DNA of 64,000 nt from Candidatus Eiseniibacteriota bacterium (GTDB taxonomy: Bacteria > Eisenbacteria > RBG-16-71-46). Below are positions 594-16,088 of the stretch, piece after piece. The notes under the pieces were generated by a model. The model saw nothing but the letters and a program-made list of their open reading frames with translations, had not been told where the DNA came from and did not search any database. Location of the stretch: contig JAXLXR010000015.1 in NCBI GenBank assembly GCA_046327815.1, forward strand, positions 28,073-92,072. The letters are read 5' to 3'. Every line of letters starts with the position of its first letter. The first letter of the stretch is position 1. A program made the position numbers and the translations under genes.

Positions 594-3059
594 CTAGTTC
601 GTCAGAATCAGGCGGCGCGTGACGCGGTTGCCGCCCATGCTCAGCTCGTAGAGGTACACGCCGCTGCGCAGGCGCCGGCCGTCGTCACCGAGGCCCGCCC
701 ACGTCACGGAGTGCGTGCCGACCGGCAGCGTCGCGTCCATCAGCTTCGCGACGCGGCGGCCGGTGACGTCGTACACGCGGAGCGCCACGTGACCGGCGCG
801 GTGCAGTTCGAACGAGAAGTTCGCGCGGCGCGAGACCGGGTTCGGCATGACCGGCCGGAGCGACGCGAAGCCCGCGCGATCCGCGGGGGCGTCGGGCCCG
901 ACGCCGGCGACGTCGGAGCACACGCCGTACACGTTCATCACGCGCACGATCGGCGTGGCCGACGTGTTCGCGACGTCGTCCAGGTACAGCGTGCGGTTGC
1001 CCGCGGCGCCGCACTCGAACGTGCCGTTCAGCCAGTACTTGAACTCGACGTTCTGCGCGCTCGAATCCGGGAACGTGATGGCGCGCGCGTAGAACATGTC
1101 GCCGGCGGCGTTGTCGTACGCGCCACCGTTGTTGAGCAGCAGCACCGAAGGCTCGCGACGGTCCCACGTGAGCGGGAACGCCGTGCCCATGACGGCGAGC
1201 GAGTCGGCCGGCAGCGCGGGCAGCGGCGAGACCGCGTCCATCTGCACCTTGAACACCACGGTCAGCGGCTTGTCGGTCACGCTGCACCGGTCGATGCCGC
1301 GGGCCGGCATGACGATCGGGTTCGCGGAGCTGAAGAGCGCGTCGTTCAGGTACACGTTGCGGTCGTTCTGGCCGAGGCACTCGATGACGCCGTTGTGGTC
1401 CACCTTCCAGTTCACGTTCTTCGGCGAGCAGGCCGGGAACGTGACGCGGGCGGTGTAGATCTTGTCGCCGGCCACGGCGTCCGGAGCGACGCCGTTGTCG
1501 AGCATCGCGGTGCCGGGCTGCGTCCAGTGCAGCGGCGACACGCTGCCGAGCACGGTGAACACGTCACCGGGCGCCGGCGAGATCCGCGACGCGTCCACCT
1601 GGAAGATCACGTCCACCGCACGGGTCGTGTAGTTCGCCGGGTCGTCGTTGTTCCACGACTCGGTGATCGTGGCCGCGGCGCCGTTGTCGCTCGTCAGGTG
1701 GTAGTTGCGGTTGCTGCCGAGCGGCTCCCACACCGTGCACTTGGCGGTGAACTTCCACTCGAGGTCCGCTTCGCCCTTGCCCGTGGCCTTGTTGACCGGC
1801 AGGCAGAACGGCACGACCACCGTGTACACCGAGTCGGTGTTCGCGTCGGTCATCAGCGAGTTGTCGCACTGCAGGAACGTGAGCGGCGGCACGCTGCCTT
1901 CGACCGAGAACGTGTCCGCGGCCGTGAAGGCGCCGGAGCACATGCCGACCTTGAAGTTGCCGTTGAACGTCACGTTCTGGAGGAAGAACGAGCCGACGTT
2001 CGTGTCGCCGTTGTTCACGATCGTGTTGAGCGCATTGTCCTTCACGTTCTGCACGGTGACGTTGTACTGCGCCGCCTGCGCGTTGATCACGCCCGACAGC
2101 GTCAGGTGCACCACGTTGGTCGCGGCCGCGTCACGCACCGCGCCGATCACGGAGCGGGTCACGGGGCCCGTGAGCACGTAGTTCGCCGTCGTCTGCGCCG
2201 ACGCCAGCTGCACGGGCTCGCTGAACGTGACGTCCACCTTGTTCGTGACGAGCGCGAACTGGCGGTTCGCCTGCAGCGTGTAGCCGACGGCCTGCACGTT
2301 GGTCACGACCGGGGGCGTGTTGTCGGAGAACGCCTGCACGGTGTACGGCACCATCGAGGTCATCTGCACAACGGCCGCGGTGTCGTAAGTCGTGCTCGCG
2401 AAGCGCGACATCTGCACGTCGTCGCTGGCGAACGCGTCGAGCGGGCCCTTGGTGGTGCCTTCCTGCGTGACCCAGAACTCGAGGTGCAGCGGGGTGCCGG
2501 CGCTCACGCCGAGCACGCTGAGCGGGATCTTCAGCTCGCGGAAGCTGGTGCTGTCGATGATCCCGAGGCCGTTCGAGCCCGAGCCCCACGCCGGGTTCAC
2601 GAGCGTCGAGCGGTTCACCCAGGTGCCGACGGTGTCCTTGTAGAGCACTTCGTAATTGAAGGTGTTGCAGTTCGTCGGGGTGACGTCGTAGACGATCCAG
2701 TCCGGCTTGAACGCCACGTTGCTCCAGCCGATCTTGCGGCCGAACGGATCCGTGGTGCCGCCGCCGGCGGTGTTCACGTCGATCGCCATGCCCACGTTCA
2801 TGTCGCAGTAGCAGGACTTGGCGAACTCGAAGCCGACGTAGAGGAAGTTCGCATCGTTGGTGACGTAGACCTTGCCGACGTCCATCGGGAAGATGCCGGC
2901 GCCACAGTTCGACTGGGTATCCTGCGCATCGTCCCCGAGCAGGTTGCTCGGATCGAAGTCGTTCACGCCGTCCACGGTGATGGTCTGCGGAACGGCCGCA
3001 TGCGCCGGAGCGGCCCCGAGTGCGACGAGGGCCAGCAGGACGAGAAGCAATCGCTTCAT
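594..3059 (-). CDS. Large secreted multidomain protein (~821 aa) with a CBM9/DOMON-like N-terminal module, Ig-like beta repeats and a C-terminal T9SS-type (FlgD-Ig-like) sorting domain
   Basis: Track ORF 594..4580 has a low-complexity R/A/G N-terminal extension. The real start is MKRLLLVLLALVALGAAPAHA (signal peptide) at 3059..3057, in frame with the stop at 594. N-terminal motif ITVDGVNDFDP...KVYVTNDANFLYVGFEF resembles CBM9-like modules. The C-terminal ~70 aa (VALRVYDVTGRRVAKLMDATLPVGTHSVTWAGLGDDGRRLRSGVYLYELSMGGNRVTRRLILTN) match the T9SS type A / FlgD-Ig-like sorting-domain pattern. Confidence 0.75.
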   Translation of the reverse strand: MKRLLLVLLALVALGAAPAHAAVPQTITVDGVNDFDPSNLLGDDAQDTQSNCGAGIFPMDVGKVYVTNDANFLYVGFEFAKSCYCDMNVGMAIDVNTAGGGTTDPFGRKIGWSNVAFKPDWIVYDVTPTNCNTFNYEVLYKDTVGTWVNRSTLVNPAWGSGSNGLGIIDSTSFRELKIPLSVLGVSAGTPLHLEFWVTQEGTTKGPLDAFASDDVQMSRFASTTYDTAAVVQMTSMVPYTVQAFSDNTPPVVTNVQAVGYTLQANRQFALVTNKVDVTFSEPVQLASAQTTANYVLTGPVTRSVIGAVRDAAATNVVHLTLSGVINAQAAQYNVTVQNVKDNALNTIVNNGDTNVGSFFLQNVTFNGNFKVGMCSGAFTAADTFSVEGSVPPLTFLQCDNSLMTDANTDSVYTVVVPFCLPVNKATGKGEADLEWKFTAKCTVWEPLGSNRNYHLTSDNGAAATITESWNNDDPANYTTRAVDVIFQVDASRISPAPGDVFTVLGSVSPLHWTQPGTAMLDNGVAPDAVAGDKIYTARVTFPACSPKNVNWKVDHNGVIECLGQNDRNVYLNDALFSSANPIVMPARGIDRCSVTDKPLTVVFKVQMDAVSPLPALPADSLAVMGTAFPLTWDRREPSVLLLNNGGAYDNAAGDMFYARAITFPDSSAQNVEFKYWLNGTFECGAAGNRTLYLDDVANTSATPIVRVMNVYGVCSDVAGVGPDAPADRAGFASLRPVMPNPVSRRANFSFELHRAGHVALRVYDVTGRRVAKLMDATLPVGTHSVTWAGLGDDGRRLRSGVYLYELSMGGNRVTRRLILTN

Positions 3060-3389
3060 GAGGGTGCTCTCCAGCCGGGTCGGGGTGCGTGATTGCAGAG
3101 AAGAGCGGCAGGCTGGACCCGGTGCAGCCCGCGTCCCGGTCGCTCGGACCGGAAACCCGGAATTTCGACGCGTCAATGGTAGGTGTTCCGGCGGACGTAG
3201 TGCAATGCCGCGGGCCCACCGGAATGCACATTTTTTCGGGGTCGAAAGTGTCGTCCAACGCACGGCCCGCGTTGCCGAAAGCCGTGGCCCTCCGGACTCC
3301 TTGACCCACCCCCGTGCGGGTCGCACTATGCGGCCGTCCACGCCTGCATTCCGCACGGCGCCACCCACGACTCTCCCTTCGGCACCCCC
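3060..3389. promoter_or_regulatory. 330-bp divergent intergenic region between two secreted-protein genes; presumed bidirectional promoter region
   Basis: Non-coding gap between divergently transcribed genes 594..3059(-) and 3390..4667(+). No convincing ORF. Promoter elements not individually resolved. Confidence 0.3.
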
Positions 3390-4667
3390 GTGAAAAGACC
3401 CGCATTCCTCGCGGCCGCACTGGTCCTCGCCGTGCTCGCCGCGCCGTCCTTCGGCGCGACCGCGCGCAATCTCGGCAGCGTGATCCAGATCGACGGCTAC
3501 GCCAGCGAGTACAGCCCCGACGACTCGGTGTTCGTCCTGAACGAGACCTCGCTCACGCTCGAGGAGCCGTGGGCCGACTCGAAATGGGGCGTGAACAACG
3601 ACGTCAACCAGATCTTCGTGACCTGGGACGCGAAGTACCTCTACTTCGCGGTCAACGGCATCACCTGGGACAACAACATGGTGCTGCTGATCGACTCCAC
3701 GCCCGGCCGCGGCCTCGAGTCCATGCTGAACATCAACTCGTGGAAGCGCCGGTTCGTGTTCGACACCACCGGTTCGGCGGCGGGCACCGGGTTCGCGCCC
3801 GACCTGTTCGGCGCCACGTGGGACGGCAACACCAGCCCGCACCTGATCATCCAGCAGAGCGGCAACACCGTGATCGACGCCATCGTCGGGCCGTTGTTCC
3901 GCGCCTCGGCCTCGTTCTCGAAGGGCAGCACCGGCCGGGCCATGGAGTTCGCGGTCCCGTGGCAGCAGGTGTTCCTGTCGTCCGCGCAGCCCGCGATCGG
4001 CACCAAGGACACGATCATCACGGTCGGCGGCGTGACGGATTCCATCCACGTGTTCCCGAAGGGCGCGAAGCTCAAGCTGGTGGCGGTGGTGACGGCCGGC
4101 GGCGACGACACCGGCGGCCCCGATACGGCGCCCGACATCCTCGGCGAGATCACCGACCAGTCGTCGGCGCAGGTGTACGTGGACAACTGGGTGATCGTGG
4201 ACCTCGACCGCAACGACGACACCGGCCTCGGGCACGGCGGCCCCGACGGCGTCGCCGACTGGGGCGTGTCCCCGCACTCGCGCGTCTCGTTCCGCGTGCG
4301 GCCGCCGTTCGTGAGCAAGCAGTTCTCGGCGTCGCGCATCCATTTCGACCGGCCGGCGTTCCGGCCCGACGCGGGCGAGCGCCTGCGCTACACGTTCGAC
4401 CTGAACGAGTACGTGGACCCGAACGACCCCGTGGACGACTTCCGCAAGGTCAAGGTGACCGCCAAGATCTTCGACATCCGAGGTCGCGTCGTGCGCACGT
4501 TCCCCGAATCCTCGCGCACCGCGCGCCACCCGCTGGACCCTGAAGTGGACCAGTGGGACGGCCGTGACGACACGGGACACATCGTGGACGGCGGCATCTA
4601 CGTGCTGCGGCTCACGGTGTCCGGCAGCCTCGAGCGCGCCACGCGCTCGTTCGTGGTGGTCCGATGA
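3390..4667 (+). CDS. Secreted protein with a CBM9/DOMON-like N-terminal module and a C-terminal T9SS-type (FlgD-Ig-like) sorting domain
   Basis: GTG start. Signal peptide MKRPAFLAAALVLAVLAAPSFGA. N-terminal motif IQIDGYASEYSPDD...WDAKYLYFAVNG (CBM9-like). C-terminal tail ...VKVTAKIFDIRGRVVRTFPE...DGGIYVLRLTVSGSLERATRSFVVVR matches the same sorting-domain family as 594..3059 and 24629..26305. Confidence 0.7.
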   Translation: MKRPAFLAAALVLAVLAAPSFGATARNLGSVIQIDGYASEYSPDDSVFVLNETSLTLEEPWADSKWGVNNDVNQIFVTWDAKYLYFAVNGITWDNNMVLLIDSTPGRGLESMLNINSWKRRFVFDTTGSAAGTGFAPDLFGATWDGNTSPHLIIQQSGNTVIDAIVGPLFRASASFSKGSTGRAMEFAVPWQQVFLSSAQPAIGTKDTIITVGGVTDSIHVFPKGAKLKLVAVVTAGGDDTGGPDTAPDILGEITDQSSAQVYVDNWVIVDLDRNDDTGLGHGGPDGVADWGVSPHSRVSFRVRPPFVSKQFSASRIHFDRPAFRPDAGERLRYTFDLNEYVDPNDPVDDFRKVKVTAKIFDIRGRVVRTFPESSRTARHPLDPEVDQWDGRDDTGHIVDGGIYVLRLTVSGSLERATRSFVVVR

Positions 4668-5587
4668 GCCGCCGCCTCGCCTTGCTCGCCCTGCTGCTGC
4701 TGCTCCCCCGCCCCGCGGCGGCCTACTTCGAAGACGTCCGCACCGGCTCGCGCGGTCTGGCGATCGGGCCTTCGGCGATCGCCGTGGTGACCGACGCCTC
4801 GTCCTACTACTGGAATCCCGCCGGCCTCGCCGAGCTGCCGAAGACCGAAGTGACCGCGGACTGGATCTCGATGTACGGCCTGTCCGAGCTGAGCTCGGGC
4901 GCGGTCGCGGCCGCCACGCGCGTGCGCGGCACGTCGTTCGGGGTCGCGTGGCACCACCTCGGGCTCGAGAACGTCTATGCCGAGGACCAGCTCTGCGCCG
5001 CCGCCGCGCGGCGCGTGCTCACCACCGGCAGCGGTCACCGGCTGTCGGCGGGCCTGACGTTCAAGTTCAGCCGCGCCGCGTTCGAACCGTTCGCGGTGAG
5101 CGGCGGCGGCATCGCCGACTACGGCGCGATCTCGCGCGGCTCGTTCGACGCCGGCCTGCGGCTGCAGACGCCGTGGCGCACGGACGTCGCGTACGTCGTG
5201 CGCGACGTGTTCCGGCCGCGCTACGAGTTCGTCGAGGGCTCCGGCGGTCACCAGCAGGCGCGGCGCAGCGAACTCGCCGCGGCGTTCCGCTGGAACCGCG
5301 AGTCCACGTTCTCGGTCGGCTGGTCGCAGCTCGGCGACGGGCGCTCCACGCTGAGCACCGGGCTCGAGATCAACTTCTACGACGTGTTCGCGATCCGCAC
5401 CGGACTGTCGAACCTCGCCACCGTCTACCGCTCGTACGGCCTGCCCGAGAACATCCAGTACGAGGGCGGGTTCGGCGTCTACCACCACGGCTACCACGTG
5501 GACGCCGTGGCGAGCACGACGCGCGAACTCGGCGCGTCGTACCGGGTCACGGTCCGCGTGCCCGTCTCGATCGGAGGCCAGCCGTGA
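4664..5587 (+). CDS. PorV/PorQ-like outer-membrane protein (putative T9SS-associated)
   Basis: Signal peptide MSRRLALLALLLLLPRPAAA. Motif GSRGLAIGPSAIAVVTDASSYYWNPAGLAEL resembles the conserved N-terminal G.RA.AMGGA...ADDASA.YWNPAGLA block of the PorV/PorQ family. Start overlaps the upstream stop (ATGA) and lies next to cargo genes with T9SS-type tails. The family call is by motif memory only. Confidence 0.45.
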   Translation: MSRRLALLALLLLLPRPAAAYFEDVRTGSRGLAIGPSAIAVVTDASSYYWNPAGLAELPKTEVTADWISMYGLSELSSGAVAAATRVRGTSFGVAWHHLGLENVYAEDQLCAAAARRVLTTGSGHRLSAGLTFKFSRAAFEPFAVSGGGIADYGAISRGSFDAGLRLQTPWRTDVAYVVRDVFRPRYEFVEGSGGHQQARRSELAAAFRWNRESTFSVGWSQLGDGRSTLSTGLEINFYDVFAIRTGLSNLATVYRSYGLPENIQYEGGFGVYHHGYHVDAVASTTRELGASYRVTVRVPVSIGGQP

Positions 5588-7212
5588 GCGCGCGCCGCCT
5601 GCTGACCCTGCTGCCCGCGCTCGGCCTGCTGCTCGGCGCGACGCCGGTCCACGCCGTCACCAAGCTCGAGGGCGAGTACCAGCTCATGCTCGAGCTGCGC
5701 AAGAGCGCCTTCAACCGCAACTTCCGCTGGGACTGGAACTCGAACGAGTACGACACCTACAACAACGCGCAGCTGCGGCTCTTCTCCACGCCGCGCGCGG
5801 GAGTCGAGTCGTTCGTGAAGGTCGAGGCGGCGTACCGCCCGAACGGCGAGAACGACGGCCCGCGGCCCGAGTTCAAGTACCGCGAGATGCACCTGCGCTT
5901 CCGCCGGCAGTTCGGCAAGCGCGAGTGGGACACCTACCTGTTCTCGCGCCAGGACCGCTTCTGGACCGACCCGTACCAGGTGCAGAGCTTCGACGCGAAC
6001 GTGCACGGCTTCAAACTCGAGCCGCTCGTGTACGGCCGCGGGGACTGGCAGGGCATCCGCACGGAGTACAAGGGCGACCGCGGGCTCAACCTGGTGTTCG
6101 TGGTCGGCGACCGCAGCAACCAGGTGGATCCGGGCAACTACTCGGGCCTGTTCGGCACGTCGCCGCTCGACTCGCTGAACGCCGCGCACGCCCTGCGCAC
6201 GGACGACCTCTACCTGTTCCGCGCCCGCCGTGACTTCCTCAAGGACTCGCGGCTCAAGCTCGGCCTGCTGCTCGTGCGCACGGAGAACTGGAACGGCGCC
6301 GACAGCCTGAACTCGAACGGCCGCCTGCCCAAGGAACCCGGACGCGGCGTGTGGGCCGTGGACGGCCACCTGCGCGTGCTCGGCTCGGACGTGAACATGG
6401 TGTACTCCGAGGCCTACCCGCACTTCGGCTCCGGCAACGGCACGCGATCGGAAGTCACGATCGGCAAGCGCTCGACCGGCCTGCAGCTGCCGGACGCCGC
6501 GATCCTCGAGGGCGAGATCCGCAGCATCCGGTTCGGAACGGCGCGCACGGGCTTCGTGAACGTGGTGCCGATCTGGTTCTCGCGCGGACCGCGCTGGTAC
6601 AACCCGGCCGGCCCTCCCGGCGCGAACCAGACGGGCTACCTGATCCAGTCCTACTACCTCATGCCCGAGCGCGCGATCACGCTCTCGCACAACTTCGGCT
6701 GGAGCAGCGACGGCTACGACCGGCGGCTCGGCTCGAAGATGACGTACGACGACATGTACGTGGAGTTCGTGAACGGCTTCACGGGCAAGCTCGCGTACCG
6801 CACGGTCGAGTCGTACTCGTACGACTTCCGTGGCGACCTGCAGGGCGTCAAGCACGACGACCTGATCGCCGAGGTGCAGGTCGAAAGCCGGCTCGCGTGG
6901 CTGCGCGTGCAGGCCAAGGCCGCCGACGTCGGCAATCCGGCGGCGAAGCAGCTGTTCGTGGTCGAGCAGTCCATCAACGTCACGCCGAAGGCGAAGTTCT
7001 ACAACCGGTTCGCGTTCGGCAACGATCCCGACAAGCTCCGCAAGGCCATCTTCACGCAGTTCCAGTACCGCCCGACCGGAAGCATGGAGATGTTCCTGCA
7101 GTACGGCCCGGACTACATCGGCGGCGGCAGCATGCCCGTGGACGAGTGGTCCCTCAACGGTGGCGGCGACCAGATCGACCAGGTCAAGTTCATCCTCAAG
7201 GGGTTCTTCTGA
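5584..7212 (+). CDS. Hypothetical outer-membrane beta-barrel protein
   Basis: GTG at 5584 overlaps the upstream stop (GTGA). Signal peptide VSARRLLTLLPALGLLLGATPVHA. Alternating amphipathic beta-strand pattern rich in Y/W/F/N/D. The C-terminus ends ...FILKGFF with a terminal Phe typical of OM beta-barrels. Confidence 0.55.
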   Translation: MSARRLLTLLPALGLLLGATPVHAVTKLEGEYQLMLELRKSAFNRNFRWDWNSNEYDTYNNAQLRLFSTPRAGVESFVKVEAAYRPNGENDGPRPEFKYREMHLRFRRQFGKREWDTYLFSRQDRFWTDPYQVQSFDANVHGFKLEPLVYGRGDWQGIRTEYKGDRGLNLVFVVGDRSNQVDPGNYSGLFGTSPLDSLNAAHALRTDDLYLFRARRDFLKDSRLKLGLLLVRTENWNGADSLNSNGRLPKEPGRGVWAVDGHLRVLGSDVNMVYSEAYPHFGSGNGTRSEVTIGKRSTGLQLPDAAILEGEIRSIRFGTARTGFVNVVPIWFSRGPRWYNPAGPPGANQTGYLIQSYYLMPERAITLSHNFGWSSDGYDRRLGSKMTYDDMYVEFVNGFTGKLAYRTVESYSYDFRGDLQGVKHDDLIAEVQVESRLAWLRVQAKAADVGNPAAKQLFVVEQSINVTPKAKFYNRFAFGNDPDKLRKAIFTQFQYRPTGSMEMFLQYGPDYIGGGSMPVDEWSLNGGGDQIDQVKFILKGFF

Positions 7213-9458
7213 TGCGCGCGCGTTCGATCACTTCCGCTCTCCTGCTGGCCGCGACGCTCGCCCTTTCGGCGGCGACCGCGGCGTTCGCCGCGCCCGAGAA
7301 GGTCGCCGGCGGCATCCGCTTCACGTACAAGGACGGCAACGCCTCGAACGTGTCGTGGGCCGGCGCGTTCAACAACTGGAACGGCACGGCGAACCCCATG
7401 ACCAAGGACGCGAACGGCGTCTGGACGGTCGTGATCGCGCTGCCCGCCGGCGAACAGCAGTACAAGTTCGTCGTGGACGGCAACTGGGTCGCCGATCCCG
7501 ACAACGGCGCCACGGCCGGCGACTTCGGCAACAGCGTCGTGCGCATCGGCAATGCCGGCGAGCTGCTCAAGGTCGCCGCCACGTCGAACACGCCCTACAA
7601 CCCCAAGATCAACATGGGCGGCCGGGCGATCGGCCTGTACCGGAGCACGTGGAGCGACGTGGAATACGCGCGCTACGAGCTCGAGCGGCCCGAACTCGAC
7701 ATGGACCTCGGCTTCGACATCCGCATGTCCGACGCGCTCATGACGAAGTTCCTGCTCAACGTGAATCCGCGCCACGAGAACGTGCAGGACTACAAGAGCC
7801 GGCTGAACTTCAAGCGCGGCTCCATGACGCTCACCCAGCCCAGCTTCACGCTCACGATGTTCGACAGCGAGCCGCTCGGCACGTGGGACGATCCGCTGCA
7901 CCTGGTCGGCGCCGAAGGCGTGTACGCGCACCCGTTCGGCTACGAGCGCGCCGGCTTCCGGCTCAAGACGCCGAAGTACGGCTTCGACACCGAAGTGCTG
8001 TACACGGACAACACCGCTCCCGGCGGCGTGAGCTCGCCGGGCTTCGGCTCGTTCGTCACCGGCAACCGCGCCATCGCGGTCGAACCCTCGGGCGCGGGCT
8101 GGCGGCTGGTGCACGGCGCGGTCTCGAAGGCCACCGCCACCGACGTCGGCGACAACCACGGCGTGTACGGCTACGGCGACGGGGACGCGGACCTCATGGC
8201 CGCGCGCATCCGCCGCCGCGTGCGCGACGACCTCACGGTCGGCGTGCTCGGCCGCAGCGACCGCGGCTTCCACTTCGGCACGATCGACCTGCTGCAGGCC
8301 ACCGGCGACAGCTCGTACGTGCGCTGGCAGGGCAACGACTACCAGCAGTCGTTCGGCGCCGGCCTCGACGCGCAGTGGTCGCCGCGCGCGAACGTCTCGG
8401 TCGAGGCCGAGTTCGCGATGGGCGGCCGGCGCCTGGTGCTGACCGACGGCGCCACCCGCAAGGACGGCAAGGTCGCCACCGCGACCGAGACCGAGGTGAC
8501 CGCCACCGAGACGACGACCGACGGGGCCGGCGCGCACTTCTCGCTCGACGAGAGCAGCCGCTGGGTGCTGCGCGGGCACTGGACGTTCGCGCAGGGCGAC
8601 GTCGCGCTGCACGCCGGCGTCGAGCGCCAGGACCACACCTACCCGGCGTGGTCGCAGGAGCCGATCACCCCGGCCGGCACGCCCTCGATCTACCACCAGC
8701 GCCAGCTGAACGTGGAGTACCAGCGCGGCGACTACCTCGACGACGCCGAGCTCGAGAACCACATGACCGAGTGGAATCTCGTGTGGGACCGCAACTGGCG
8801 CTACTACCTCGGCCGCCCGGTCCGCACCTCGCTCGGCGTGACGTGGACGAACTTCCGCTACGACGCGCGCACCGCGTGGGAGCACCAGCTCTGGTTCCCG
8901 AACGGCAACTTCTGGCTGTCCCCGGGCCAGCACGTGGTGTCGGTCGCGCGCATGACGCTGCTCGGCGAGCCGCAGGCGATCGAGCTGCGGCCCACGATCG
9001 AGTACCCGATCCGCCGCGCGAACGCCATGAGCCTCACGCTGACCGGCCACTACGCCACCACGCGGCTCGACAAGAAGCCGCGCTTCGCCGAGACCATCGC
9101 GCGCTTCGGCTTCGACGCGAACCGCGCGGTGCGCCTGCAGACCGACTGGCGCTGGGCGCGCTACGACGTGCCGGCGCTCGACCTGCAGCGCGGCTACCTG
9201 TCGCAGTTCACCGAGGCGATCTACCGCTTCGGCGACGAGGCCTCCGTGTCGCTGGGCTTCGGCGTGGATCCCTACGTCGTGGACCGCGTCACCAACGAAT
9301 ACGCGTACGTCGGCCGCGAGATGTTCCTCGAGGACCTGAACGCGAACGGCTGGGTCGCCGAGTCGAACTGGTTCAGCCTCGCGCCGCAGCTGTCGGCCGC
9401 GGAGAAGAGCCTGCAGAACACGAAGCGCATCCAGCTCAAGGCCGTGGTGCACTTCTAG
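7212..9458 (+). CDS. Outer-membrane protein: N-terminal CBM48 (glycogen/starch-binding, E-set) module fused to a large beta-barrel-like domain
   Basis: ATG at 7212 overlaps the upstream stop by 1 nt. Signal peptide MRARSITSALLLAATLALSAATAAFA. Residues ~30-110 FTYKDGNASNVSWAGAFNNWNGTANPMTKDANGVWTVVIALPAGEQQYKFVVDGNWVADPDN fit the CBM48/AMPK-beta glycogen-binding pattern (W..W...M....W.....G.Y.YKF.VDG.W..DP). The remaining ~630 aa show a beta-strand pattern and end ...KAVVHF with a terminal Phe. Confidence 0.65.
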   Translation: MRARSITSALLLAATLALSAATAAFAAPEKVAGGIRFTYKDGNASNVSWAGAFNNWNGTANPMTKDANGVWTVVIALPAGEQQYKFVVDGNWVADPDNGATAGDFGNSVVRIGNAGELLKVAATSNTPYNPKINMGGRAIGLYRSTWSDVEYARYELERPELDMDLGFDIRMSDALMTKFLLNVNPRHENVQDYKSRLNFKRGSMTLTQPSFTLTMFDSEPLGTWDDPLHLVGAEGVYAHPFGYERAGFRLKTPKYGFDTEVLYTDNTAPGGVSSPGFGSFVTGNRAIAVEPSGAGWRLVHGAVSKATATDVGDNHGVYGYGDGDADLMAARIRRRVRDDLTVGVLGRSDRGFHFGTIDLLQATGDSSYVRWQGNDYQQSFGAGLDAQWSPRANVSVEAEFAMGGRRLVLTDGATRKDGKVATATETEVTATETTTDGAGAHFSLDESSRWVLRGHWTFAQGDVALHAGVERQDHTYPAWSQEPITPAGTPSIYHQRQLNVEYQRGDYLDDAELENHMTEWNLVWDRNWRYYLGRPVRTSLGVTWTNFRYDARTAWEHQLWFPNGNFWLSPGQHVVSVARMTLLGEPQAIELRPTIEYPIRRANAMSLTLTGHYATTRLDKKPRFAETIARFGFDANRAVRLQTDWRWARYDVPALDLQRGYLSQFTEAIYRFGDEASVSLGFGVDPYVVDRVTNEYAYVGREMFLEDLNANGWVAESNWFSLAPQLSAAEKSLQNTKRIQLKAVVHF

Positions 9459-9472
9459 GAGGACACTCACCC

Positions 9473-9877
9473 ATGCGCCGAATCTCCCTCCTGCTCGTGC
9501 TCGCCGCGCTGGCGCTCGTCGCGCTCGCCGGCTGCAGCACCCTGACGTTCGTGAAGCGCCGCCTGCCGCCGCCCACCGTGGGCGCAGACGGCGTGCTGTT
9601 CCGCTTCTACGCCCCGTCCGCGAAGGCCGTGCAGCTCGCGGGCAACTGGCCCGAGAACAACTGGCTCAGCGGCCAGGCGCAGTCGGGCGGGCTCAACATC
9701 GGGCTCATGAACGACGACGACCACGACGGAATCTGGACGCGCACCGAGAAGCTCCCGCCCGGCCGCTACCAGTACAAGTTCGTCGTGGACCAGGTGAACT
9801 GGAAGGAAGACCCGAACAACCCGAACCGCACCAACGACGGCTACGGCGGCAACAACTCGGTGCTGGACGTCCGATGA
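9473..9877 (+). CDS. Small lipoprotein consisting of a single CBM48 glycogen/starch-binding module
   Basis: Lipobox LAGC (MRRISLLLVLAALALVALAGCS). Then VLFRFYAPSAKAVQLAGNWPENNW...GIWTRTEKLPPGRYQYKFVVDQVNWKEDPNNP, a CBM48-type module. Shine-Dalgarno GGAGG upstream. Confidence 0.7.
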   Translation: MRRISLLLVLAALALVALAGCSTLTFVKRRLPPPTVGADGVLFRFYAPSAKAVQLAGNWPENNWLSGQAQSGGLNIGLMNDDDHDGIWTRTEKLPPGRYQYKFVVDQVNWKEDPNNPNRTNDGYGGNNSVLDVR

Positions 9878-10728
9878 ACGCACTGCGACGGCTGCTCCCG
9901 CTCCTGTGTCTCGCCGGCCTCGTACTGCTCGCCGGCTGCGGCAAGAACCTGCCCACGAGTTCGATCGTCCCGACCGGCTACCGCCCGGGCACGCCTCCCG
10001 GCGCGATCGCCGGCTCGATCCTGTACGACACGACGACCTACGACATGCCCGGCGCACCCTACCCGCCCGTGCGCATCGAACTGCACACGTTCCACCACGA
10101 CACGCTCGGGCCGCTGGTCGCGTCGAGCAGCAGCGGCGGCGCGAACCGCGGTTTCGCGTTCACCGGGCTCATGCCCGACAGCTACATGGTGCAGCTCAAG
10201 GCGCACGGCTTCGCCGCGCGCGACTTCGGGCCGTTCCGCGTCGAACTCGACCCCATCGCGGCCGGCGCGGTGTTCCTGCCCGCGCAGTCCGAATCGCTGC
10301 CCGCGATCACGTTCGTGATCGGCACCATGCCGGGATTCTCGGTGGACGACGCGTTCGGCACCTTCGCGACGAGCATGTACCAGGATCCGCTCGGCCTGTG
10401 GAAGTACCCGGACTTCCTGTTCGGCTACACGTCCATCGCCGCGGGCACGTACCGCTTCAAGTTCGTCACCGACTTCTCCTCCACCCCGACGCACCTGATC
10501 GGCTGGGGCGGTGATTCCACGATCACCTACGTGGCGCCCGTGACGAACCAGCCGGTGCGCTTCGCCTCCGGCCCCGCCGAGGACATCAAGGTCACGTTCC
10601 CCTCGTCCGGCAACTGGGACTTCCAGTTCGACGAACGCCGGCTCACCTTCAGCATCACGCCCGCCCCGCCCGTGCCCGCGCTCGCGGCACGTACGGCCCG
10701 TGCGGTGCGCACGAGGATCGTCCGATGA
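9874..10728 (+). CDS. Lipoprotein with a CarboxypepD_reg-like N-terminal domain and a CBM-like C-terminal half; SusE/SusF-like in organisation only
   Basis: ATGA overlap with the upstream gene. Lipobox LLAGCG. Segment GAIAGSILYDT...VRIELHT...FAFTGLMPDSYMVQLKAHGFAARD resembles carboxypeptidase-regulatory-like domains. The C-terminal GTYRFKFVTDF...LIGWGGD is reminiscent of starch-binding modules. Function is inferred from context. Confidence 0.55.
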   Translation: MNALRRLLPLLCLAGLVLLAGCGKNLPTSSIVPTGYRPGTPPGAIAGSILYDTTTYDMPGAPYPPVRIELHTFHHDTLGPLVASSSSGGANRGFAFTGLMPDSYMVQLKAHGFAARDFGPFRVELDPIAAGAVFLPAQSESLPAITFVIGTMPGFSVDDAFGTFATSMYQDPLGLWKYPDFLFGYTSIAAGTYRFKFVTDFSSTPTHLIGWGGDSTITYVAPVTNQPVRFASGPAEDIKVTFPSSGNWDFQFDERRLTFSITPAPPVPALAARTARAVRTRIVR

Positions 10729-12140
10729 AGATCACGCTCCGTACCCTCTGTGCCCTGCTCCTCACCACCGCGCTCAGCGGCTGCGCCGGCGGCTGGCGTG
10801 GTGGCGTGGCCCCCGCGGCGTGGGACACCGCAGCGCCCGTGGCGGCGGCCGCGCCCGCCGCGAAGGCGAAGGCGAACGGCAAGGCGACCGCGGTCACCGA
10901 GTCCGGTGTGCAGTTCGTGTACGCGGGCGAGGCGTCCAGCGTGAACGTGGCCGGTGAGTTCAACAGCTGGTCCACGTCGGCCGACCCCATGCAGAAGCAG
11001 GCGAACGGCACGTGGACGCTGACCAAGGCGCTCGCGCCGGGCCGCTACCAGTACAAGTTCGTGCTCAACGGCGGCGACTGGAAGGCGGACGACAACGCGC
11101 CCGAGTTCGCGGACGACGGCTACGGCGGCAAGAACTCGCTCGTCGTGGTGACCGGCGCCGCGGTCGCGGCTGCGGCGGCGAAGCCCGCGGCGGCGGGCGG
11201 TCCGGCGGTGAGCGGCGACGGCGTCACGTTCCGCTACACGGGCACGGGCGGCAGCGTGAACGTGGCCGGCGAGTTCAACAGCTGGTCCACCAGCGCCGAC
11301 CCCATGAAGAAGCAGGCCGACGGCACGTGGACGCTGACCAAGGCGCTCGCCCCCGGCCGTTACCAGTACAAGTTCGTCGTGGACGGCACCAACTGGAAGC
11401 AGGACGACGCCGCGGCCGAGTTCGTGGACGACGGTTACGGCGGCAAGAACTCGCTCGTCGTGGTCGGCGGCACCGCGGCGGCGGCTCCGGCGGCTCCTGC
11501 CGCGGCGGCCGCGCCCGCCGCGAGCGGCGACGGCGTCACGTTCCGCTACAAGGGCCCGGGCGGCAGCGTGAACCTGGCCGGCGAGTTCAACAGCTGGTCC
11601 ACCAGCGCCGACCCCATGAAGAAGCAGGCCGACGGCACGTGGACGCTCACCAAGGCGCTCGCGCCCGGCCGCTACCCGTACAAGTTCGTCGTGGACGGCA
11701 CCAACTGGAAGTCCGACGACGCGGCCACCGAGTTCGTGGACGACGGCTACGGCGGCAAGAACTCGGTCGTCGTGGTCGGCGGCGGCGCGGCCGCCGCACC
11801 CGCGGCTTCCGCCGCCAGGCCCGCCGGTGCGGTGAAGCCGCTCGCCGCGGGCGTGAAGCCGCAGGCGCCTCGCGTCACCGCCGCCGGCGTGGTGTTCACG
11901 TTCGCGGGCAGCGCGCGCACCGGTGTGTCGGTGTGCGGCGACTTCAACAGCTGGGGCGTCACGGTGAACAAGATGACGCAGAACGCCGACGGCTCGTGGA
12001 CCGCGACGGTCAAGATGCCGCCCGGCAGCTACGCGTACAAGTTCCTCGTGGACGGCACCACCTGGAAGCAGGACGAAGGCAATCCCGCCACGGCCGACGA
12101 CGGCTTCGGCGGCAAGAACTCGATCATCGTCGTGAAGTGA
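10725..12140 (+). CDS. Lipoprotein with four tandem CBM48 glycogen/starch-binding modules
   Basis: Lipobox LSGCAG. Four ~100-aa repeats each read ...V.F.Y.G.GGSVNVAGEFNSWSTSADPM.KQADGTWTLTKALAPGRYQYKFVVDG.NWK.DDAA.EFVDDGYGGKNS.VVV. Repeats 2 and 3 are nearly identical. Repeats are separated by Ala/Pro-rich linkers. Confidence 0.75.
   Translation: MKITLRTLCALLLTTALSGCAGGWRGGVAPAAWDTAAPVAAAAPAAKAKANGKATAVTESGVQFVYAGEASSVNVAGEFNSWSTSADPMQKQANGTWTLTKALAPGRYQYKFVLNGGDWKADDNAPEFADDGYGGKNSLVVVTGAAVAAAAAKPAAAGGPAVSGDGVTFRYTGTGGSVNVAGEFNSWSTSADPMKKQADGTWTLTKALAPGRYQYKFVVDGTNWKQDDAAAEFVDDGYGGKNSLVVVGGTAAAAPAAPAAAAAPAASGDGVTFRYKGPGGSVNLAGEFNSWSTSADPMKKQADGTWTLTKALAPGRYPYKFVVDGTNWKSDDAATEFVDDGYGGKNSVVVVGGGAAAAPAASAARPAGAVKPLAAGVKPQAPRVTAAGVVFTFAGSARTGVSVCGDFNSWGVTVNKMTQNADGSWTATVKMPPGSYAYKFLVDGTTWKQDEGNPATADDGFGGKNSIIVVK
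10956..11890 (+). repeat. Intragenic tandem DNA repeats, three units of ~312-315 bp, encoding the CBM48 modules of the 4xCBM48 lipoprotein
   Basis: The string gagttcaacagctggtccac... recurs at ~10956, ~11271 and ~11583. Units 2 and 3 are near-identical at DNA level. A fourth, diverged module follows at 11890..12120. Confidence 0.7.
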
Positions 12141-12231: not shown

Positions 12232-14886
12232 ATGTCCCTCCGCACGCCCATCGCGCGCGTCGCGCTCGCGGCCACGCTGGCCTGCGCCGCGCTGCTTTCG
12301 GCCGCGCTGCCCGCCTGGGCCACCAAGGTCACGTTCCGCTACCAGCCCGTCATCGGTGGCGTCTCCCGGGTGAGCGTCGCCGGCAGCTTCAACGGCTGGA
12401 AGGCGGACGCCAACCCGATGACGGACCCGGACAAGGACGGCGTCTGGTCCGCGGACATCGAGATCCCGGCGGGCCGGGTGCAGTACAAGTTCGTGGTCAA
12501 CGGCGACCAGTGGATGACCGACGAGAACGCCGCGGAGTTCGAAAGCGACGGGCTCGGCGGCCAGAACAGCGTGCTGGTCGTGACCGACAAGCCGGTGATC
12601 GCGGGTTACGGCACCACCGTGAAGAAGGCTCCGCCGGTGAAGGCCGGGATGCGTCGCGTGACGTTCTCGTTCAAGCCGGACAAGAAGCCCGATGCGCTGT
12701 GCGTGGCCGGCGCGTTCAACGACTGGACCGTGGGCAAGACGCCCATGACCGATCCCGACGGCGACGGCACGTACACGACCACGCTCCTGCTCGCCCCGGG
12801 CAGCTACCCGTACAAGTTCGTGATCGGCTCCAGCGGCTGGACGCAGGACAAGGCCGGGCAGGATTCCGAGATCGACGACGGCTTCGGCGGCAAGAACTCG
12901 ATCCGCGTCGTGGACGAGCGCTTCCCCTCGCTCGAAGTGAAGCGCGGCGACGGCAAGCTGTTCCCGGACGGCATCGAGCACACGCAGAGCGCGAACGAAG
13001 TGAACGCGCTGGGCGGCGGCCGCGTGCAGTTCACCGCGCGCGCGCACCTCGACGACGTGGACGGCGTGGACCTGGTCACGTGGGGTCCGGCCGAGACCAT
13101 CACCACCATGCATCGCGCGAACACGGACAAGGTGTTCGAGTACTTCCGCGCCGAGGTCAAGCTGCCCGCCGGCAACGTGCCGTACGCGTTCCGCTACCGC
13201 GACGGCACGAAGACGTGGTGGCTGGGCGCGAAGGGCGTGACCGAGGCGGCGCCCGAGAAGTTCACGTTCGACCCCGCGCGCTTCCCGGCGTTCACGACGC
13301 CCGACTGGGTGCGCAACGGCGTCATCTACCAGGTGTTCCCGGACCGCTTCCGCAACGGCAACCCGGCGAACGATCCCGACTTCAAGGAGTGGTACTACGA
13401 AGGCAAGCGCACGCTGCCGGCGAGCGGCGTGCTGAACACCGACTTCCAGGAGTACTACCACCTCGTCCGGAACTGGAACGACTACGCGGCGCTCACGCAG
13501 GCGCCCCACACGCCGGACCACCGTGACTGGATGGCGTTCTACGGCGGCGACATCGAGGGCGTGCGCCAGAAGCTCGACTACCTCAAGTCGCTCGGCGTCA
13601 CGATCCTCTACTTCAACCCGATCTTCGAGGCGAAGTCCACGCACAAGTACGACGCCGCGGACTACCGCAAGATCGATCCGCACTTCGGCACGAACGCCGA
13701 GTTCGTCACGTTCGTGAAGGAAGCGCACGCCAAGGGCATCAAGATCATCCTCGACATCGTCTACAACCACTCGGGCAACTCGAACTTCGCGTTCCGCGAC
13801 GCCGTGCAGAACGGCGAATCGAGCCCGTACTGGAAGTGGTACGAGTTCCGCCGCTGGCCGCTTCCCGCCGGCTGGCCGTCGCCCGCGACGAGCTGGAAGC
13901 CCTCCGACTACTACGCGTGCTGGTGGAACTTCGGCGACCTGCCCGACCTCGACTTCGACCTGTCGCGCGACGACAAGGCCGAAATCCCGATCAAGGACGT
14001 CAAGGACGCGCAGCCGAACATCGGGCTCGTGAACTACCTGCTCGACGCGACCACGTACTGGCTGCGCGACGCCGACGTGGACGGCGTGCGCCTCGACGTG
14101 CCGAACGAAGTTCCGTTCTGGTTCTGGAAGCTGTTCAACCAGCGCGTCAAGACTGTGAAGCCCGACGCCTACATCGTGGGCGAACTCTGGGGCAACGCGT
14201 CCGACTACGTCCGCCCGGGCGTGTACGACGCCGTCATGAACTACGCGTTCTTCCGCGACCCGGTACTCAAGTTCCTCGGCATGGGCCAGGGCACGGCCGC
14301 GGAGTTCGACGCCTCGCTCTCGACGGGACGGCTCACCTACCCGATGCAGGCCGTCGAAGTGCAGATGAACCTGATCGACAGCCACGACACGGTGCGGTTC
14401 CTCACGCAGGTCGGCGGCAACACGTCGCGGCTGATGCTCGCGGCGCTGTTCCAGATGACCTACGTGGGCGCGCCGGCGATCTACTACGGCGACGAGATCG
14501 CCATGGAAGGCCAGCGCGATCCCGACTGCCGGCGGCCGTTCGTGTGGGACTGGGAGAAGGACCCGAAGCGCGTCGCGATGCACGCGTGGTACACGAAGCT
14601 CGCGAACCTGCGGCTCGGCCACTCCGCGCTGCGCGCGGGCGAGTTCGTCACGCGCAAGGCCGAGGGCATGACCTACCTGTACTCGCGCACGGGCGGCGGC
14701 GAAGAGTTCCTCGTCGCGATCAACGCCGGGCGTTCGCCGCAGAACGTGGCGCTCGACCTGGGCCCGTGGGGCGGCAAGGTGACCGCCGTGGACGCGCTCG
14801 AGGGCGGCGCGCCGCAGGCCTGGACGGGCACCGCCACGATCACGCTCGCGCCGGAGAGCGGCCGGATCTTCCAGCTGACGCGCTGA
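12232..14886 (+). CDS. GH13-family alpha-amylase / neopullulanase-like glucanase with two N-terminal CBM48 modules
   Basis: Signal peptide MSLRTPIARVALAATLACAALLSAALPAWA. Two CBM48-type modules: VTFRYQP...SVAGSFNGWKADANPM...VQYKFVVNGDQWMTDEN and RVTFSFKPDK...VAGAFNDWTVGKTPM...YPYKFVIGSSGWTQDK. Then GH13 catalytic signatures VIYQVFPDRFRNGN, GGDIEG...LDYLKSLGVTILYFNPIF, KIILDIVYNHSG, DGVRLDVPNEV, IVGELWGN and NLIDSHDTVRF. Confidence 0.9.
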   Translation: MSLRTPIARVALAATLACAALLSAALPAWATKVTFRYQPVIGGVSRVSVAGSFNGWKADANPMTDPDKDGVWSADIEIPAGRVQYKFVVNGDQWMTDENAAEFESDGLGGQNSVLVVTDKPVIAGYGTTVKKAPPVKAGMRRVTFSFKPDKKPDALCVAGAFNDWTVGKTPMTDPDGDGTYTTTLLLAPGSYPYKFVIGSSGWTQDKAGQDSEIDDGFGGKNSIRVVDERFPSLEVKRGDGKLFPDGIEHTQSANEVNALGGGRVQFTARAHLDDVDGVDLVTWGPAETITTMHRANTDKVFEYFRAEVKLPAGNVPYAFRYRDGTKTWWLGAKGVTEAAPEKFTFDPARFPAFTTPDWVRNGVIYQVFPDRFRNGNPANDPDFKEWYYEGKRTLPASGVLNTDFQEYYHLVRNWNDYAALTQAPHTPDHRDWMAFYGGDIEGVRQKLDYLKSLGVTILYFNPIFEAKSTHKYDAADYRKIDPHFGTNAEFVTFVKEAHAKGIKIILDIVYNHSGNSNFAFRDAVQNGESSPYWKWYEFRRWPLPAGWPSPATSWKPSDYYACWWNFGDLPDLDFDLSRDDKAEIPIKDVKDAQPNIGLVNYLLDATTYWLRDADVDGVRLDVPNEVPFWFWKLFNQRVKTVKPDAYIVGELWGNASDYVRPGVYDAVMNYAFFRDPVLKFLGMGQGTAAEFDASLSTGRLTYPMQAVEVQMNLIDSHDTVRFLTQVGGNTSRLMLAALFQMTYVGAPAIYYGDEIAMEGQRDPDCRRPFVWDWEKDPKRVAMHAWYTKLANLRLGHSALRAGEFVTRKAEGMTYLYSRTGGGEEFLVAINAGRSPQNVALDLGPWGGKVTAVDALEGGAPQAWTGTATITLAPESGRIFQLTR

Positions 14887-14987: not shown

Positions 14988-16088
<1,101 letters not shown>

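Follow-up and report, generated by a model that had tools for sequence, protein, structure and literature searches.

The 64-kb stretch of DNA analysed here, which we call the window, contains near its start a compact group of genes for secreted, outer-membrane and glucan-related proteins, together with a more distant gene for a secreted protein, D:

594..3059, minus strand: protein A, 821 aa, with a signal peptide, an N-terminal module, a Big_5 domain, three choice-of-anchor X repeats and a sorting domain
3060..3389, no strand: divergent intergenic region of 330 bp between A and the B operon
3390..4667, plus strand: protein B, 425 aa, with a signal peptide, a predicted CBM74/CBM9-like beta-sandwich and a divergent FlgD-Ig-like C-terminal domain
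4664..5587, plus strand: predicted PorV-like outer-membrane barrel of 14 beta-strands, 307 aa, with a signal peptide and an N-terminal helical plug that contains YYWNPAGLA
5584..7212, plus strand: protein C, 542 aa, an orphan putative outer-membrane protein (OMP) that has a signal peptide and whose C-terminal beta-signal has Phe as its last residue
7212..9458, plus strand: protein E, 748 aa, with a signal peptide, an N-terminal CBM48 and an orphan domain of ~630 aa
9473..9877, plus strand: 134-aa lipoprotein with a single CBM48-like domain and an LAGC lipobox, the fifth core member
9874..10728, plus strand: 284-aa lipoprotein with no family match (the orthologue in the related locus L002 has a faint CarboxypepD_reg match)
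10725..12140, plus strand: 471-aa lipoprotein with four CBM48 repeats (AMPK1_CBM, 183.8 bits, 4 stretches) and an LSGC lipobox
12232..14886, plus strand: secreted GH13 enzyme of the alpha-amylase/neopullulanase type, 884 aa, with two CBM48 modules at the N-terminus (Alpha-amylase, 215 bits)
14988..16088, minus strand: MalK-type ABC transporter ATPase (ABC_tran, OB_MalK, TOBE_2), convergent with the operon
24629..26305, minus strand: protein D, 558 aa, with a signal peptide, an HExxH metalloprotease-like region, a PA domain and an A-type sorting-like domain

A sequence-only reading of the window had recognized a high-GC, non-Bacteroidota genome, and this is what it is: GC content is ~70% across the window, and the source is an uncultured Candidatus Eisenbacteria MAG, in which protein B and the PorV-like protein have 100% identical entries (U0704_14220 in NCBI protein and U0704_14225, respectively). 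Eisenbacteria are an FCB-group lineage (FCB superphylum). A T9SS has already been proposed for several non-Bacteroidota phyla of this superphylum (PMC11285876) and, therefore, T9SS-type signals in Eisenbacteria are less surprising than that reading implied.

The genes that it flagged make up the first half of an operon for starch/glycogen utilisation that is conserved. The operon core consists of five translationally coupled genes, i.e. B, the PorV-like barrel, C, E and the 134-aa CBM48 lipoprotein, with overlapping stop and start codons at B/PorV-like (ATGA), PorV-like/C (GTGA) and C/E (TGATG); protein A, further CBM48 lipoproteins, the secreted GH13 amylase and MalK are Eisenbacteria additions to this core. 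CBM48 occurs in four proteins of the locus, which together with GH13 and MalK counts for a glucan-related function. The best NCBIfam match of the GH13 enzyme is maltodextrin glucosidase (E=2e-104, under the model cut-off), the L002 orthologue of the 134-aa lipoprotein is annotated AMPK1_CBM, and the position of MalK is kept in related loci, L002 also having a sugar-binding protein and two permeases of the maltose type nearby. The order A(-), B-PorV-like-C-E-CBM48 lipoprotein-lipoprotein-CBM48 lipoproteins in varying number-GH13 (+), MalK(-) is kept in 32 of 32 GTDB Eisenbacteria loci where the contig is long enough, with PorV-like identity down to 36% and the PorV-like gene always between B and the OMPs C and E; GH13 is coupled to the core wherever the contig reaches, and MalK as well on nine loci. 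This conserved order with CBM48, GH13 and MalK genes bears out the earlier suggestion that the cargo-like neighbours belong to the adjacent glucan locus. The five-gene core also occurs in the same order, at 25–29% full-length identity, on Latescibacterota/Krumholzibacteriia-like contigs, an assignment that rests on the labels of C-family relatives, and the 134-aa lipoprotein stays 3' of E in the Latescibacterota-like loci as in Eisenbacteria. These distant cores come without A, GH13 and MalK, and in one of them the operon includes a gene for an MFS transporter. At least three FCB candidate lineages share the five core genes; the missing adjacent amylase in Latescibacterota-like loci counts against the interpretation that we favour below.

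A and B lie head-to-head across exactly 330 bp, as had been proposed, and A is divergent from B in every Eisenbacteria locus long enough to show it. A scan of this region (3060–3389) found no consensus sigma-70 site; by eye only, we picked a candidate TTGACC-N17-CACTAT ~60 nt upstream of B.

Proteins A, B and D each start with a Sec-type signal peptide, in agreement with the three secreted ORFs initially described. They had been thought to end in the same ~70-aa sorting domain, which holds for A and D (45% identity over 75 aa, E=9e-16) but not for B, whose tail is divergent. Among the six-frame ORFs of the window, an HMM of the A and D tails matches three and no others, namely D, A and, weakly, B. 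The tail of A (residues ~737–821; window 597–851) passes TIGR04183 (30.7 bits; cut-off 23) and FlgD_ig (32.2; cut-off 27) and is below the cut-off of PF18962 (20.1; cut-off 27). TIGR04183 is matched by 21 of 22 A orthologues and choice_anch_X by all 22, the Big_5 Ig-like domain of A is weak, and the best PDB match of the A family profile is the C-terminal domain of PorU (E=4e-6). We regard A as a glucan-binding-like protein whose sorting tail is genuinely of a T9SS type A-like kind. In D (residues ~476–558; window 24632–24880), the sorting-like domain passes FlgD_ig (41.2; cut-off 27) while falling 3 bits short of TIGR04183 (20.0; cut-off 23), and the PA domain scores 68 bits; D lies outside the glucan locus, at a distance of 19 kb and among unrelated genes, and is likely cargo.

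The C-terminal domain of B (residues ~310–425; window 4317–4664) has no TIGR04183 match and misses every curated sorting-domain cut-off, and by sequence it is closest in the PDB to FlgD rather than to a T9SS CTD, both of which count against the favoured interpretation. Because its identity to the A and D tails is 23–33% (pairwise E ~2–3e-5), its FlgD_ig score is 15.5 bits (cut-off 27) and TIGR04183 is without a match, we consider it only a distant relative of the A/D tails. Among 45 B orthologues, 14 match FlgD_ig and none matches Por_Secre_tail. Profile–profile comparison of the A and B family tails (E=1.7e-8, 95% probability, last 68 residues) shows them to be homologous. A CBM9/DOMON-like N-terminus had been suggested for both A and B. 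Neither protein has a CBM9 or DOMON match in Pfam or NCBIfam, and comparing their N-terminal profiles gives no significant similarity (12% probability, E=0.0024); the predicted fold supports a CBM9-like module in B only. The AF2 model of B (pLDDT 90), with its sandwich module at residues ~25–300, has as its top Foldseek match the starch-binding BIg-CBM74-BIg region of Sas6 from the Ruminococcus bromii amylosome (PDB 7UWV; E=5e-7), the core of which is CBM9-like (bioRxiv 10.1101/2022.11.20.514607); PorU, PorZ and FlgD are also among the matches. In both the B model and Sas6, a large CBM9-like sandwich precedes an Ig domain, and both proteins belong to a starch-degrading context, but identity is 10–14%, B has no CBM74 sequence-family match, and Sas6 uses a dockerin as its anchor and comes from a Gram-positive organism, whereas B, from a diderm, carries a FlgD/CTD-like tail. 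The TM of ~0.3 is low, which counts against our interpretation and which we ascribe to the multi-domain alignment.

The PorV-like protein had been described as carrying both a YWNPAGLA block and a barrel with a terminal Phe. The motif is present (YYWNPAGLA, residues 47–55 of ORF 4664..5587; W50 and N51 invariant among 43 orthologues), but the two features belong to separate genes: the PorV-like protein ends in GGQP, and the Phe end (KGFF) is that of protein C. A long ORF, 4564..7212, was rejected as a single gene, its part upstream of 5584 being a high-GC artefact. PorV_fam (NF033709; 36.3 bits, cut-off 90) and PorV2 (NF052325; 38.8 bits, cut-off 325) are the only family matches, in 43 of 43 orthologues; hence, the predicted relationship to PorV/PorQ stands as best family match and not at the level of the cut-offs, and the PorV_fam alignment is limited to the N-terminal ~90 residues, i.e. 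the N-terminal third; the low scores and the short alignment both count against our interpretation. The PorV or PorQ equivalog models are touched by only 2–4 of the 43 orthologues (E~2e-4), one orthologue carries the UniRef name 'PorV/PorQ family protein', and Pfam, Toluene_X included, gives no match to the window protein. In the AF2 model (pLDDT 86) 14 strands are predicted, and the top Foldseek match is PorV of F. johnsoniae in the substrate-bound T9SS translocon (8gl6_F, TMq 0.75), ahead of FadL proteins (0.53–0.61). These models suggest that the 307-aa protein is a PorV/FadL-fold barrel. Neither the window nor the recovered loci contain another PorV-like gene.

Protein C has no Pfam match even at E<=1, no NCBIfam match and no PDB sequence match, and it matches only 74 clusters (50% identity) among 1.84 billion proteins; its F542 is invariant in 28 orthologues. 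Protein E has an N-terminal glycogen/starch-binding module (AMPK1_CBM, 50 bits; CBM_48, 39.6 bits), its PDB profile matches are to the AMPK beta CBM only, and its C-terminal part, without a Pfam match at E<=1, ends in an alternating hydrophobic strand and an invariant Phe (F748). C and E are not homologous to each other; based on their signal peptides and terminal beta-signals, both are putative outer-membrane barrels.

Our working hypothesis, to which we give about an even chance, is that window 594–16088 constitutes a conserved locus for the use of alpha-glucan (starch/glycogen), with the PorV-like barrel as its dedicated carrier or anchor. As read directly from signal peptides and lipoboxes, all components are exported by Sec. 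A, and probably B, would then be brought to the cell surface via a T9SS-like pathway; the ~40 genes of the window include none of the T9SS core genes porK/L/M/N, sprA and porU, which counts against this step. The barrel, as a locus-dedicated paralogue rather than a general T9SS shuttle, would bind the C-terminal Ig domain of B and hold B at the outer membrane beside C and E, as suggested by invariant adjacency and fold and, for the B–barrel contact, by synteny. Dedicated barrel–cargo pairs have precedents in the PorQ–PorZ, PorV–PorU and PorP/SprF-type B pairs of Bacteroidota, where the C-terminal domain is retained (PMC9143113, PMC12618676, PMC10947112). As in these pairs, the gene for a cargo-like protein whose C-terminal Ig domain is atypical and conserved lies directly upstream of that for its own small outer-membrane barrel, and the role, by analogy, may be permanent anchoring rather than release. 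Unlike in those systems, the B tail is FlgD-like and by HMM neither a type A nor a type B CTD, the B–barrel interaction is putative, and the window barrel is on the PorV/PorQ side with no match to PorP/SprF models. Finally, judging from domain content, the CBM48 and CBM74-like modules would capture alpha-glucan, GH13 would cut it, and the oligosaccharides would cross the outer membrane via C and/or E and enter the cell via a MalK-energised ABC system or, in one relative, the MFS transporter.

We also considered that the operon may function without a T9SS, with the barrel as a FadL-superfamily channel or as one structural component of an outer-membrane hetero-oligomer that also includes C and E, the B tail as a generic FlgD-type Ig for protein–protein or glycan contacts, and B, the CBM48 of E and the lipoproteins possibly facing the periplasm. 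The WNPA plug motif is a FadL-superfamily feature rather than PorV-specific and, like the 14-strand barrel, is common to FadL/TodX hydrophobic-substrate channels, the second-best structural matches; one Latescibacterota-like homologue has a faint Toluene_X (FadL) match; both points count against our working hypothesis, and the FlgD-like B tail, the lack of T9SS core genes in the window and the core without A in other phyla also fit this alternative. On the other hand, PorV ranks above FadL by TM-score and HMM, the window protein lacks a Pfam Toluene_X match, the tail of B is homologous to that of A, which passes TIGR04183, PorU and PorZ, which bear CTDs, are among the structural matches of B, and the tight B–barrel adjacency resembles known cargo–carrier gene pairs (PMC12618676). 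We regard this alternative as possible but unlikely. The window protein also differs from the FadL/TodX channels in genomic context, which here is carbohydrate and not lipid or aromatic metabolism. It is improbable that A, B and D represent normal T9SS cargo, with the barrel as a housekeeping PorV/PorQ that serves as general shuttle or attachment-complex subunit and lies next to the glucan locus by chance. With PorV (LptO), the type A carrier of Bacteroidota (PDB 6H3I/8GL6 chain F), the barrel shares the FadL-superfamily fold with N-terminal WNPA plug, the best structural and HMM family matches and a location beside CTD-like-tailed proteins; the passing A tail, the UniRef name and the lack of another PorV-like gene in the window also agree with a housekeeping role. 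However, identity is only 13%, the scores are far below cut-off with few equivalog matches, and the barrel is ~95 residues shorter with shorter loops and, therefore, the CTD-binding loops of PorV may be absent, which counts against our working hypothesis as well. Moreover, its gene is never outside this operon position (32 Eisenbacteria loci and the Latescibacterota/Krumholzibacteriia-like loci) and is translationally coupled to B and C in a catabolic operon, whereas PorV is encoded with porU or alone; the organism does not belong to Bacteroidota, the window shows no SprA partner, and the likely cargo D is distant. Lastly, the five-gene core might serve an alpha-glucan made by the cell itself, with export or anchoring of a glycogen-like polymer at the surface or in the periplasm instead of import of external starch. 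This would agree with Latescibacterota-like cores that lack an adjoining amylase or ABC importer and are flanked by PPDK, DUF362, STAS and VWA genes, and with N-terminal domains of barrel proteins being periplasmic as a rule, but is very improbable given the coupling to GH13 and MalK in Eisenbacteria, the maltose-type genes in L002, the MFS importer in one distant operon and the lack of any glycosyltransferase or polymer synthase in the locus by Pfam and NCBIfam profiles.

In our working hypothesis, the locus resembles SusCDEFG and other PULs of Bacteroidota in its co-transcribed OMPs, surface/lipoprotein glycan binders and amylase and in the theme of alpha-glucan capture, cutting and import; unlike SusCDEFG, it lacks a SusC TonB-dependent transporter, SusD and SusR and instead combines a PorV-fold barrel with two families of orphan OMPs, lipoproteins rich in CBM48 and import by ABC/MalK. 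We consider the finding moderately interesting and no breakthrough: we read the PorV-like protein as a dedicated carrier or anchor within an alpha-glucan capture and uptake apparatus and not as a housekeeping PorV.

The segment from 594 to 16088 is an alpha-glucan utilisation locus, the core of which is an outer-membrane module with a barrel of predicted PorV fold as a fixed component. Because GC content is ~70% from end to end of the window, spurious long ORFs are plentiful; genes were called with a codon-position GC filter and checked against translations.

Genes of the locus, and the third gene of the window that encodes a C-terminal Ig-like tail
594..3059, - strand: A, 821 aa, tail-bearing
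3060-3389: gap of 330 bp between the divergent genes A and B
3390..4667, + strand: B, 425 aa, tail-bearing
4664..5587, + strand: PorV-like gene, 307 aa
5584..7212, + strand: C, 542 aa, orphan putative outer-membrane protein
7212..9458, + strand: E, 748 aa, CBM48 at the N-terminus (Pfam/NCBIfam)
9473..9877, 9874..10728 and 10725..12140, + strand: three lipoprotein genes of the operon
12232..14886, + strand: GH13 gene with two CBM48 modules (Pfam/NCBIfam)
14988..16088, - strand: MalK gene (Pfam/NCBIfam), convergent with the operon
24629..26305, - strand: D, third tail-bearing protein, among 2-oxoglutarate dehydrogenase genes

Stop and start codons overlap at the junctions of B with the 307-aa gene, of the 307-aa gene with C, and of C with E (ATGA, GTGA and TGATG, respectively). 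In Pfam and NCBIfam scans, two of the lipoproteins carry CBM48, one as a single module and one as four, and the hallmarks of a SusC/SusD-type PUL (TonB-dependent receptor, plug, SusD) were absent from every gene of the locus. A scan of the locus for sigma-70 promoters and terminators gave nothing exceeding shuffled expectation. B is identical to U0704_14220 and the 307-aa protein to U0704_14225 of a Candidatus Eisenbacteria MAG; exact look-up placed the PorV-like protein on a Logan contig of 1.6 kb and nowhere else, and returned no record for protein A. Directly downstream of A, and cut by the window edge (2-463), lies a gene for a secreted protein of no known family. Many Eisenbacteria loci retain this gene in the same place, at 48-79% identity, and it gave no hit for the C-terminal domain (CTD) of A, B and D.

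The sequence-only reading had placed a single PorV-like barrel ending in Phe immediately behind B. The gene calls divide this protein into two, because it is the 307-aa protein, ending in GGQP, that contains the YYWNPAGLA motif, and the terminal Phe belongs to C. The true PorV block is thus inside the 307-aa gene, in a different reading frame from C. An ORF at 4564..7212 was rejected as a gene, its part upstream of 5584 being out-of-frame read-through, and so was the WYNPAG of C (residues ~338-343) as a PorV block, given that only N340 is invariant there.

The 307-aa protein has no Pfam match at E<=0.01, Toluene_X (PF03349) included, and its only NCBIfam matches are to NF033709 PorV_fam (36.3 bits versus a cut-off of 90, with residues 22-109 only aligned) and to NF052325 'PorV2' (38.8 bits versus a cut-off of 325, residues 22-61), a family for which we found no description in the literature. 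The same pattern was obtained for 43/43 orthologues tested; the PorV equivalog (NF033710) was touched by two of these and the PorQ equivalog (NF033711) by four, at E~2e-4. An AF2 model built from the 43-sequence alignment (pLDDT 86, pTM 0.81) has N-terminal helices followed by 14 strands. Its first-ranked Foldseek match is 8GL6 chain F (TMq 0.75, rmsd 4.9 A), which a sequence search identified as PorV of F. johnsoniae, and FadL and TodX come next in the list with TMq 0.52-0.61; as modeled, the protein is a FadL-type 14-strand barrel with an N-terminal plug that is nearer PorV than FadL. It is ~95 residues shorter than PorV. Together, the structural match and the sub-threshold HMM scores identify the 307-aa protein as a predicted PorV-fold barrel and probable distant relative of the PorV/PorQ family, lying under the curated family threshold. 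The original PorV/PorQ-like assignment is therefore upheld for the fold but not by the family cut-off.

The main rival explanation, which we consider rather unlikely, leaves T9SS out and makes the barrel simply a subunit or channel of the FadL superfamily. The WNPA block is a plug feature of the FadL superfamily, a 'delta NPA' FadL mutant being present among the Foldseek matches, and the motif by itself therefore does not identify PorV; moreover, one Latescibacterota-like homologue has a precomputed 'faint' Toluene_X hit. On the other side stands the closer structural match to PorV than to FadL and TodX. Membership in PorP/SprF was dismissed, as no such Pfam or NCBIfam model matched the protein or its 43 orthologues. 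Neither the window nor ~500 kb of related loci yielded a second PorV-like gene.

C and E, the two genes that follow the predicted PorV-fold barrel, both encode signal peptides, and the last strand of each protein has alternating hydrophobic residues and closes with an invariant Phe. Pfam at E<=1 and PDB sequences gave no match for full-length C or for E after its CBM48, and neither BLASTP nor hhalign detected homology between C and E. In a HMMER search of 1.84 billion representative proteins, the C family comprised 74 clusters (50% identity), 13 of them at E<=1e-30; its named members are all 'hypothetical protein', and the distant ones include entries from Latescibacterota- and Krumholzibacteriia-labelled records. 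The position of C, with the PorV-like gene on one side and E on the other, never varies. In E, the N-terminal CBM48 (glycogen/starch-binding) is fused to a ~630-aa family-less domain with a classic OMP beta-signal, and we know of no earlier description of such a fusion between a carbohydrate-binding module and an outer-membrane-barrel-like protein. A hydrophobic-moment score was discarded as beta-barrel evidence because it did not separate the modeled barrel from soluble controls.

A, B and D all have signal-peptide-like N-termini, as read from the sequence, and tails that run to the stop codon. The tails of A and D share 45% identity (E=9e-16), and when an HMM made from these two was run against the six-frame ORFs of the window, exactly three matched, strongly in the case of D and A and at E=1e-4 in that of B. 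The tail of A passes TIGR04183 (30.7 bits, cut-off 23) and FlgD_ig (32.2 bits, cut-off 27) and is below the cut-off for PF18962 (20.1, cut-off 27); that of D passes FlgD_ig (41.2 bits, cut-off 27) and is below the cut-off for TIGR04183 (20.0, cut-off 23); and that of B is below the cut-off for FlgD_ig (15.5 bits, cut-off 27), with neither TIGR04183 nor PF18962 giving any match. Among orthologues of A, TIGR04183 matched 21/22 and choice-of-anchor X 22/22; among those of B, FlgD_ig matched 14/45 and Por_Secre_tail 0/45. Profile-profile comparison found the A-family and B-family tails homologous over the last 68 residues (95% probability, E=1.7e-8). Among PDB sequences, the PorU C-terminal domain comes closest to the A-family profile (4e-6), with FlgD second, and FlgD comes closest to the B-family profile (0.003). 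By scores, orthologue counts and profile comparisons, the tail of A reads as a bona fide type A-like signal by TIGR04183, though below the PF18962 cut-off, that of D as a borderline type A sorting domain, and that of B as a distinct, conserved, FlgD-like variant. The three shared T9SS type A tails initially proposed thus reduce to A, with D falling just short and B dropping out.

Several Eisenbacteria loci (L015 3-1781, L023 1-1548, L006 3-1661 and others) encode, ~8 kb upstream of B, one more protein whose tail matches the A/D type strongly (E 1e-13 to 1e-19), so that the tail is in repeated use in the phylum. D, a protease-like protein with a T9SS-like tail, has as its immediate upstream neighbour, co-oriented and 1 bp away, a 109-aa gene (26307-26636) that passes the NCBIfam post-PEP-CTERM-1 domain model with 61 bits (cut-off 28), which hints that the genome may also use PEP-CTERM/exosortase-type sorting.

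In the PDB, the AF2 model of B (pLDDT 90) best matches Sas6, a starch-adherence protein of R. bromii, over its BIg-CBM74-BIg region (E=5e-7), with a TM of only ~0.3 because several domains are aligned together; further matches were PorU, PorZ, FlgD and, weakly, the DOMON-like subunit 2ivf_C. According to the Sas6 paper, the CBM74 core resembles CBM9 most (bioRxiv 10.1101/2022.11.20.514607). The match thus supports a CBM9-like fold for B in the model and would fit a role in starch binding. A CBM9-like N-terminus had been suggested as common to A and B; this guess is backed for B at the fold level but not as a shared module, the N-termini of A and B giving a non-significant 12% probability in hhalign. 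No Pfam or NCBIfam model matched a CBM9/DOMON module in either protein.

From GTDB species genomes, 32 loci with the 307-aa family were recovered, and those with a named organism are Candidatus Eisenbacteria. In tblastn searches with the window proteins, gene order was identical in every one of these loci that was long enough to judge: A on the - strand, divergent from B, PorV-like gene, C, E, CBM48 lipoprotein, lipoprotein, CBM48 repeats and GH13 on the + strand, followed by MalK on the - strand. Identity of the PorV-like protein falls as low as 36% across these loci. On an independently annotated contig of 1.16 Mb, genes for a sugar-binding protein and two ABC permeases lie close by as well, as does a second GH13. 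In one locus from a long-read Eisenbacteria assembly (L033 8719-14392), tblastn breaks each of the genes B, PorV-like, C and E into two pieces, owing either to assembly frameshifts or to decay of this operon copy.

Contigs of distant C members carry a five-gene core in unchanged order with 25-29% full-length identity, consisting of a B-like protein, a ~300-aa PorV-like barrel, a C-like protein, an E-like protein with CBM48 and a small CBM48 lipoprotein. The Latescibacterota/Krumholzibacteriia-like loci lack A, GH13 and MalK nearby, and their cores are flanked by genes for pyruvate phosphate dikinase, PatA_N, DUF362, STAS and VWA proteins.

Amylase-free core loci of Latescibacterota/Krumholzibacteriia-like contigs
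L035, 6131-12461
L038, 7844-14238
L040, 455-4387

One JGI contig has an MFS transporter inside the operon, between E and the CBM48 lipoprotein. That the five-gene order is kept over such divergent lineages is strong evidence that the five products act jointly.

Pfam and NCBIfam scans of the ~40 genes of the window found none for SprA/Sov, PorK/L/M/N or PorU. We take Eisenbacteria to be a member of the FCB group, and T9SS-type tails in a genome of this group are expected and in themselves no surprise, because such signals have already been reported outside Bacteroidota and inside the FCB group. Specifically, several non-Bacteroidota FCB phyla have been proposed to have a T9SS (PMC11285876); we found no paper joining Eisenbacteria or Latescibacteria with T9SS.

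Elsewhere in the window, 28536-52380 is filled by nine consecutive paralogues of a large Ser/Thr protein kinase (750-920 aa), the C-terminal regions of which are of PD40 beta-propeller or TPR type. After them come a PAP2 phosphatase and an FHA-GAF-SpoIIE (PP2C) phosphatase at 52442-54852, and together these genes make up a striking island of signalling functions. Rubrerythrin is encoded at 56917-57606, and at 58223-63998 an Alternative Complex III-like operon encodes ActD, a membrane subunit of NrfD type, a subunit with molybdopterin/4Fe-4S and a cytochrome c.

In Bacteroidota, PorQ holds PorZ and PorV holds PorU through retained C-terminal domains, and PorP/SprF-like barrels hold neighbouring type B cargo in the same manner (PMC9143113, PMC12618676, PMC10947112). 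By analogy with these pairs, and set beside the observed gene order, domain content, family scores and predicted folds of two proteins, the most economical mechanism would be that the PorV-like barrel anchors B by the conserved FlgD/CTD-like tail of B, beside the putative channels C and E; the invariant adjacency of the two genes supports this suggestion. Surface export would proceed by a T9SS, and we infer both the channel function of C and E and the direction of transport. As a tentative proposal, which we hold with considerable doubt, the five-gene core may constitute an undescribed SusC/D-independent machine for glycan capture and import at the outer membrane, in which a T9SS carrier fold is co-opted as a permanent anchoring subunit, and which is common to Eisenbacteria, Latescibacterota and Krumholzibacteria (FCB candidate phyla). 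Such a machine might work without any canonical T9SS translocon.

What is new here is a dedicated barrel of predicted PorV fold in a glucan operon that is conserved, lacks SusC/D and centres on two families of orphan OMPs. If the model holds, the principle that a dedicated barrel holds a retained C-terminal domain, which derives from the PorQ-PorZ and PorP/SprF pairs of Bacteroidota, would reach into uncultured FCB phyla and would cover nutrient acquisition too. It would also mean an architecture for starch uptake that uses neither SusC/D nor maltoporin and is built from two protein families wholly without annotation, one of them the family of 74 clusters. Eisenbacteria are common in soils and sediments and, to our knowledge, have no cultured member, so the conserved locus offers a concrete, testable handle on their diet.
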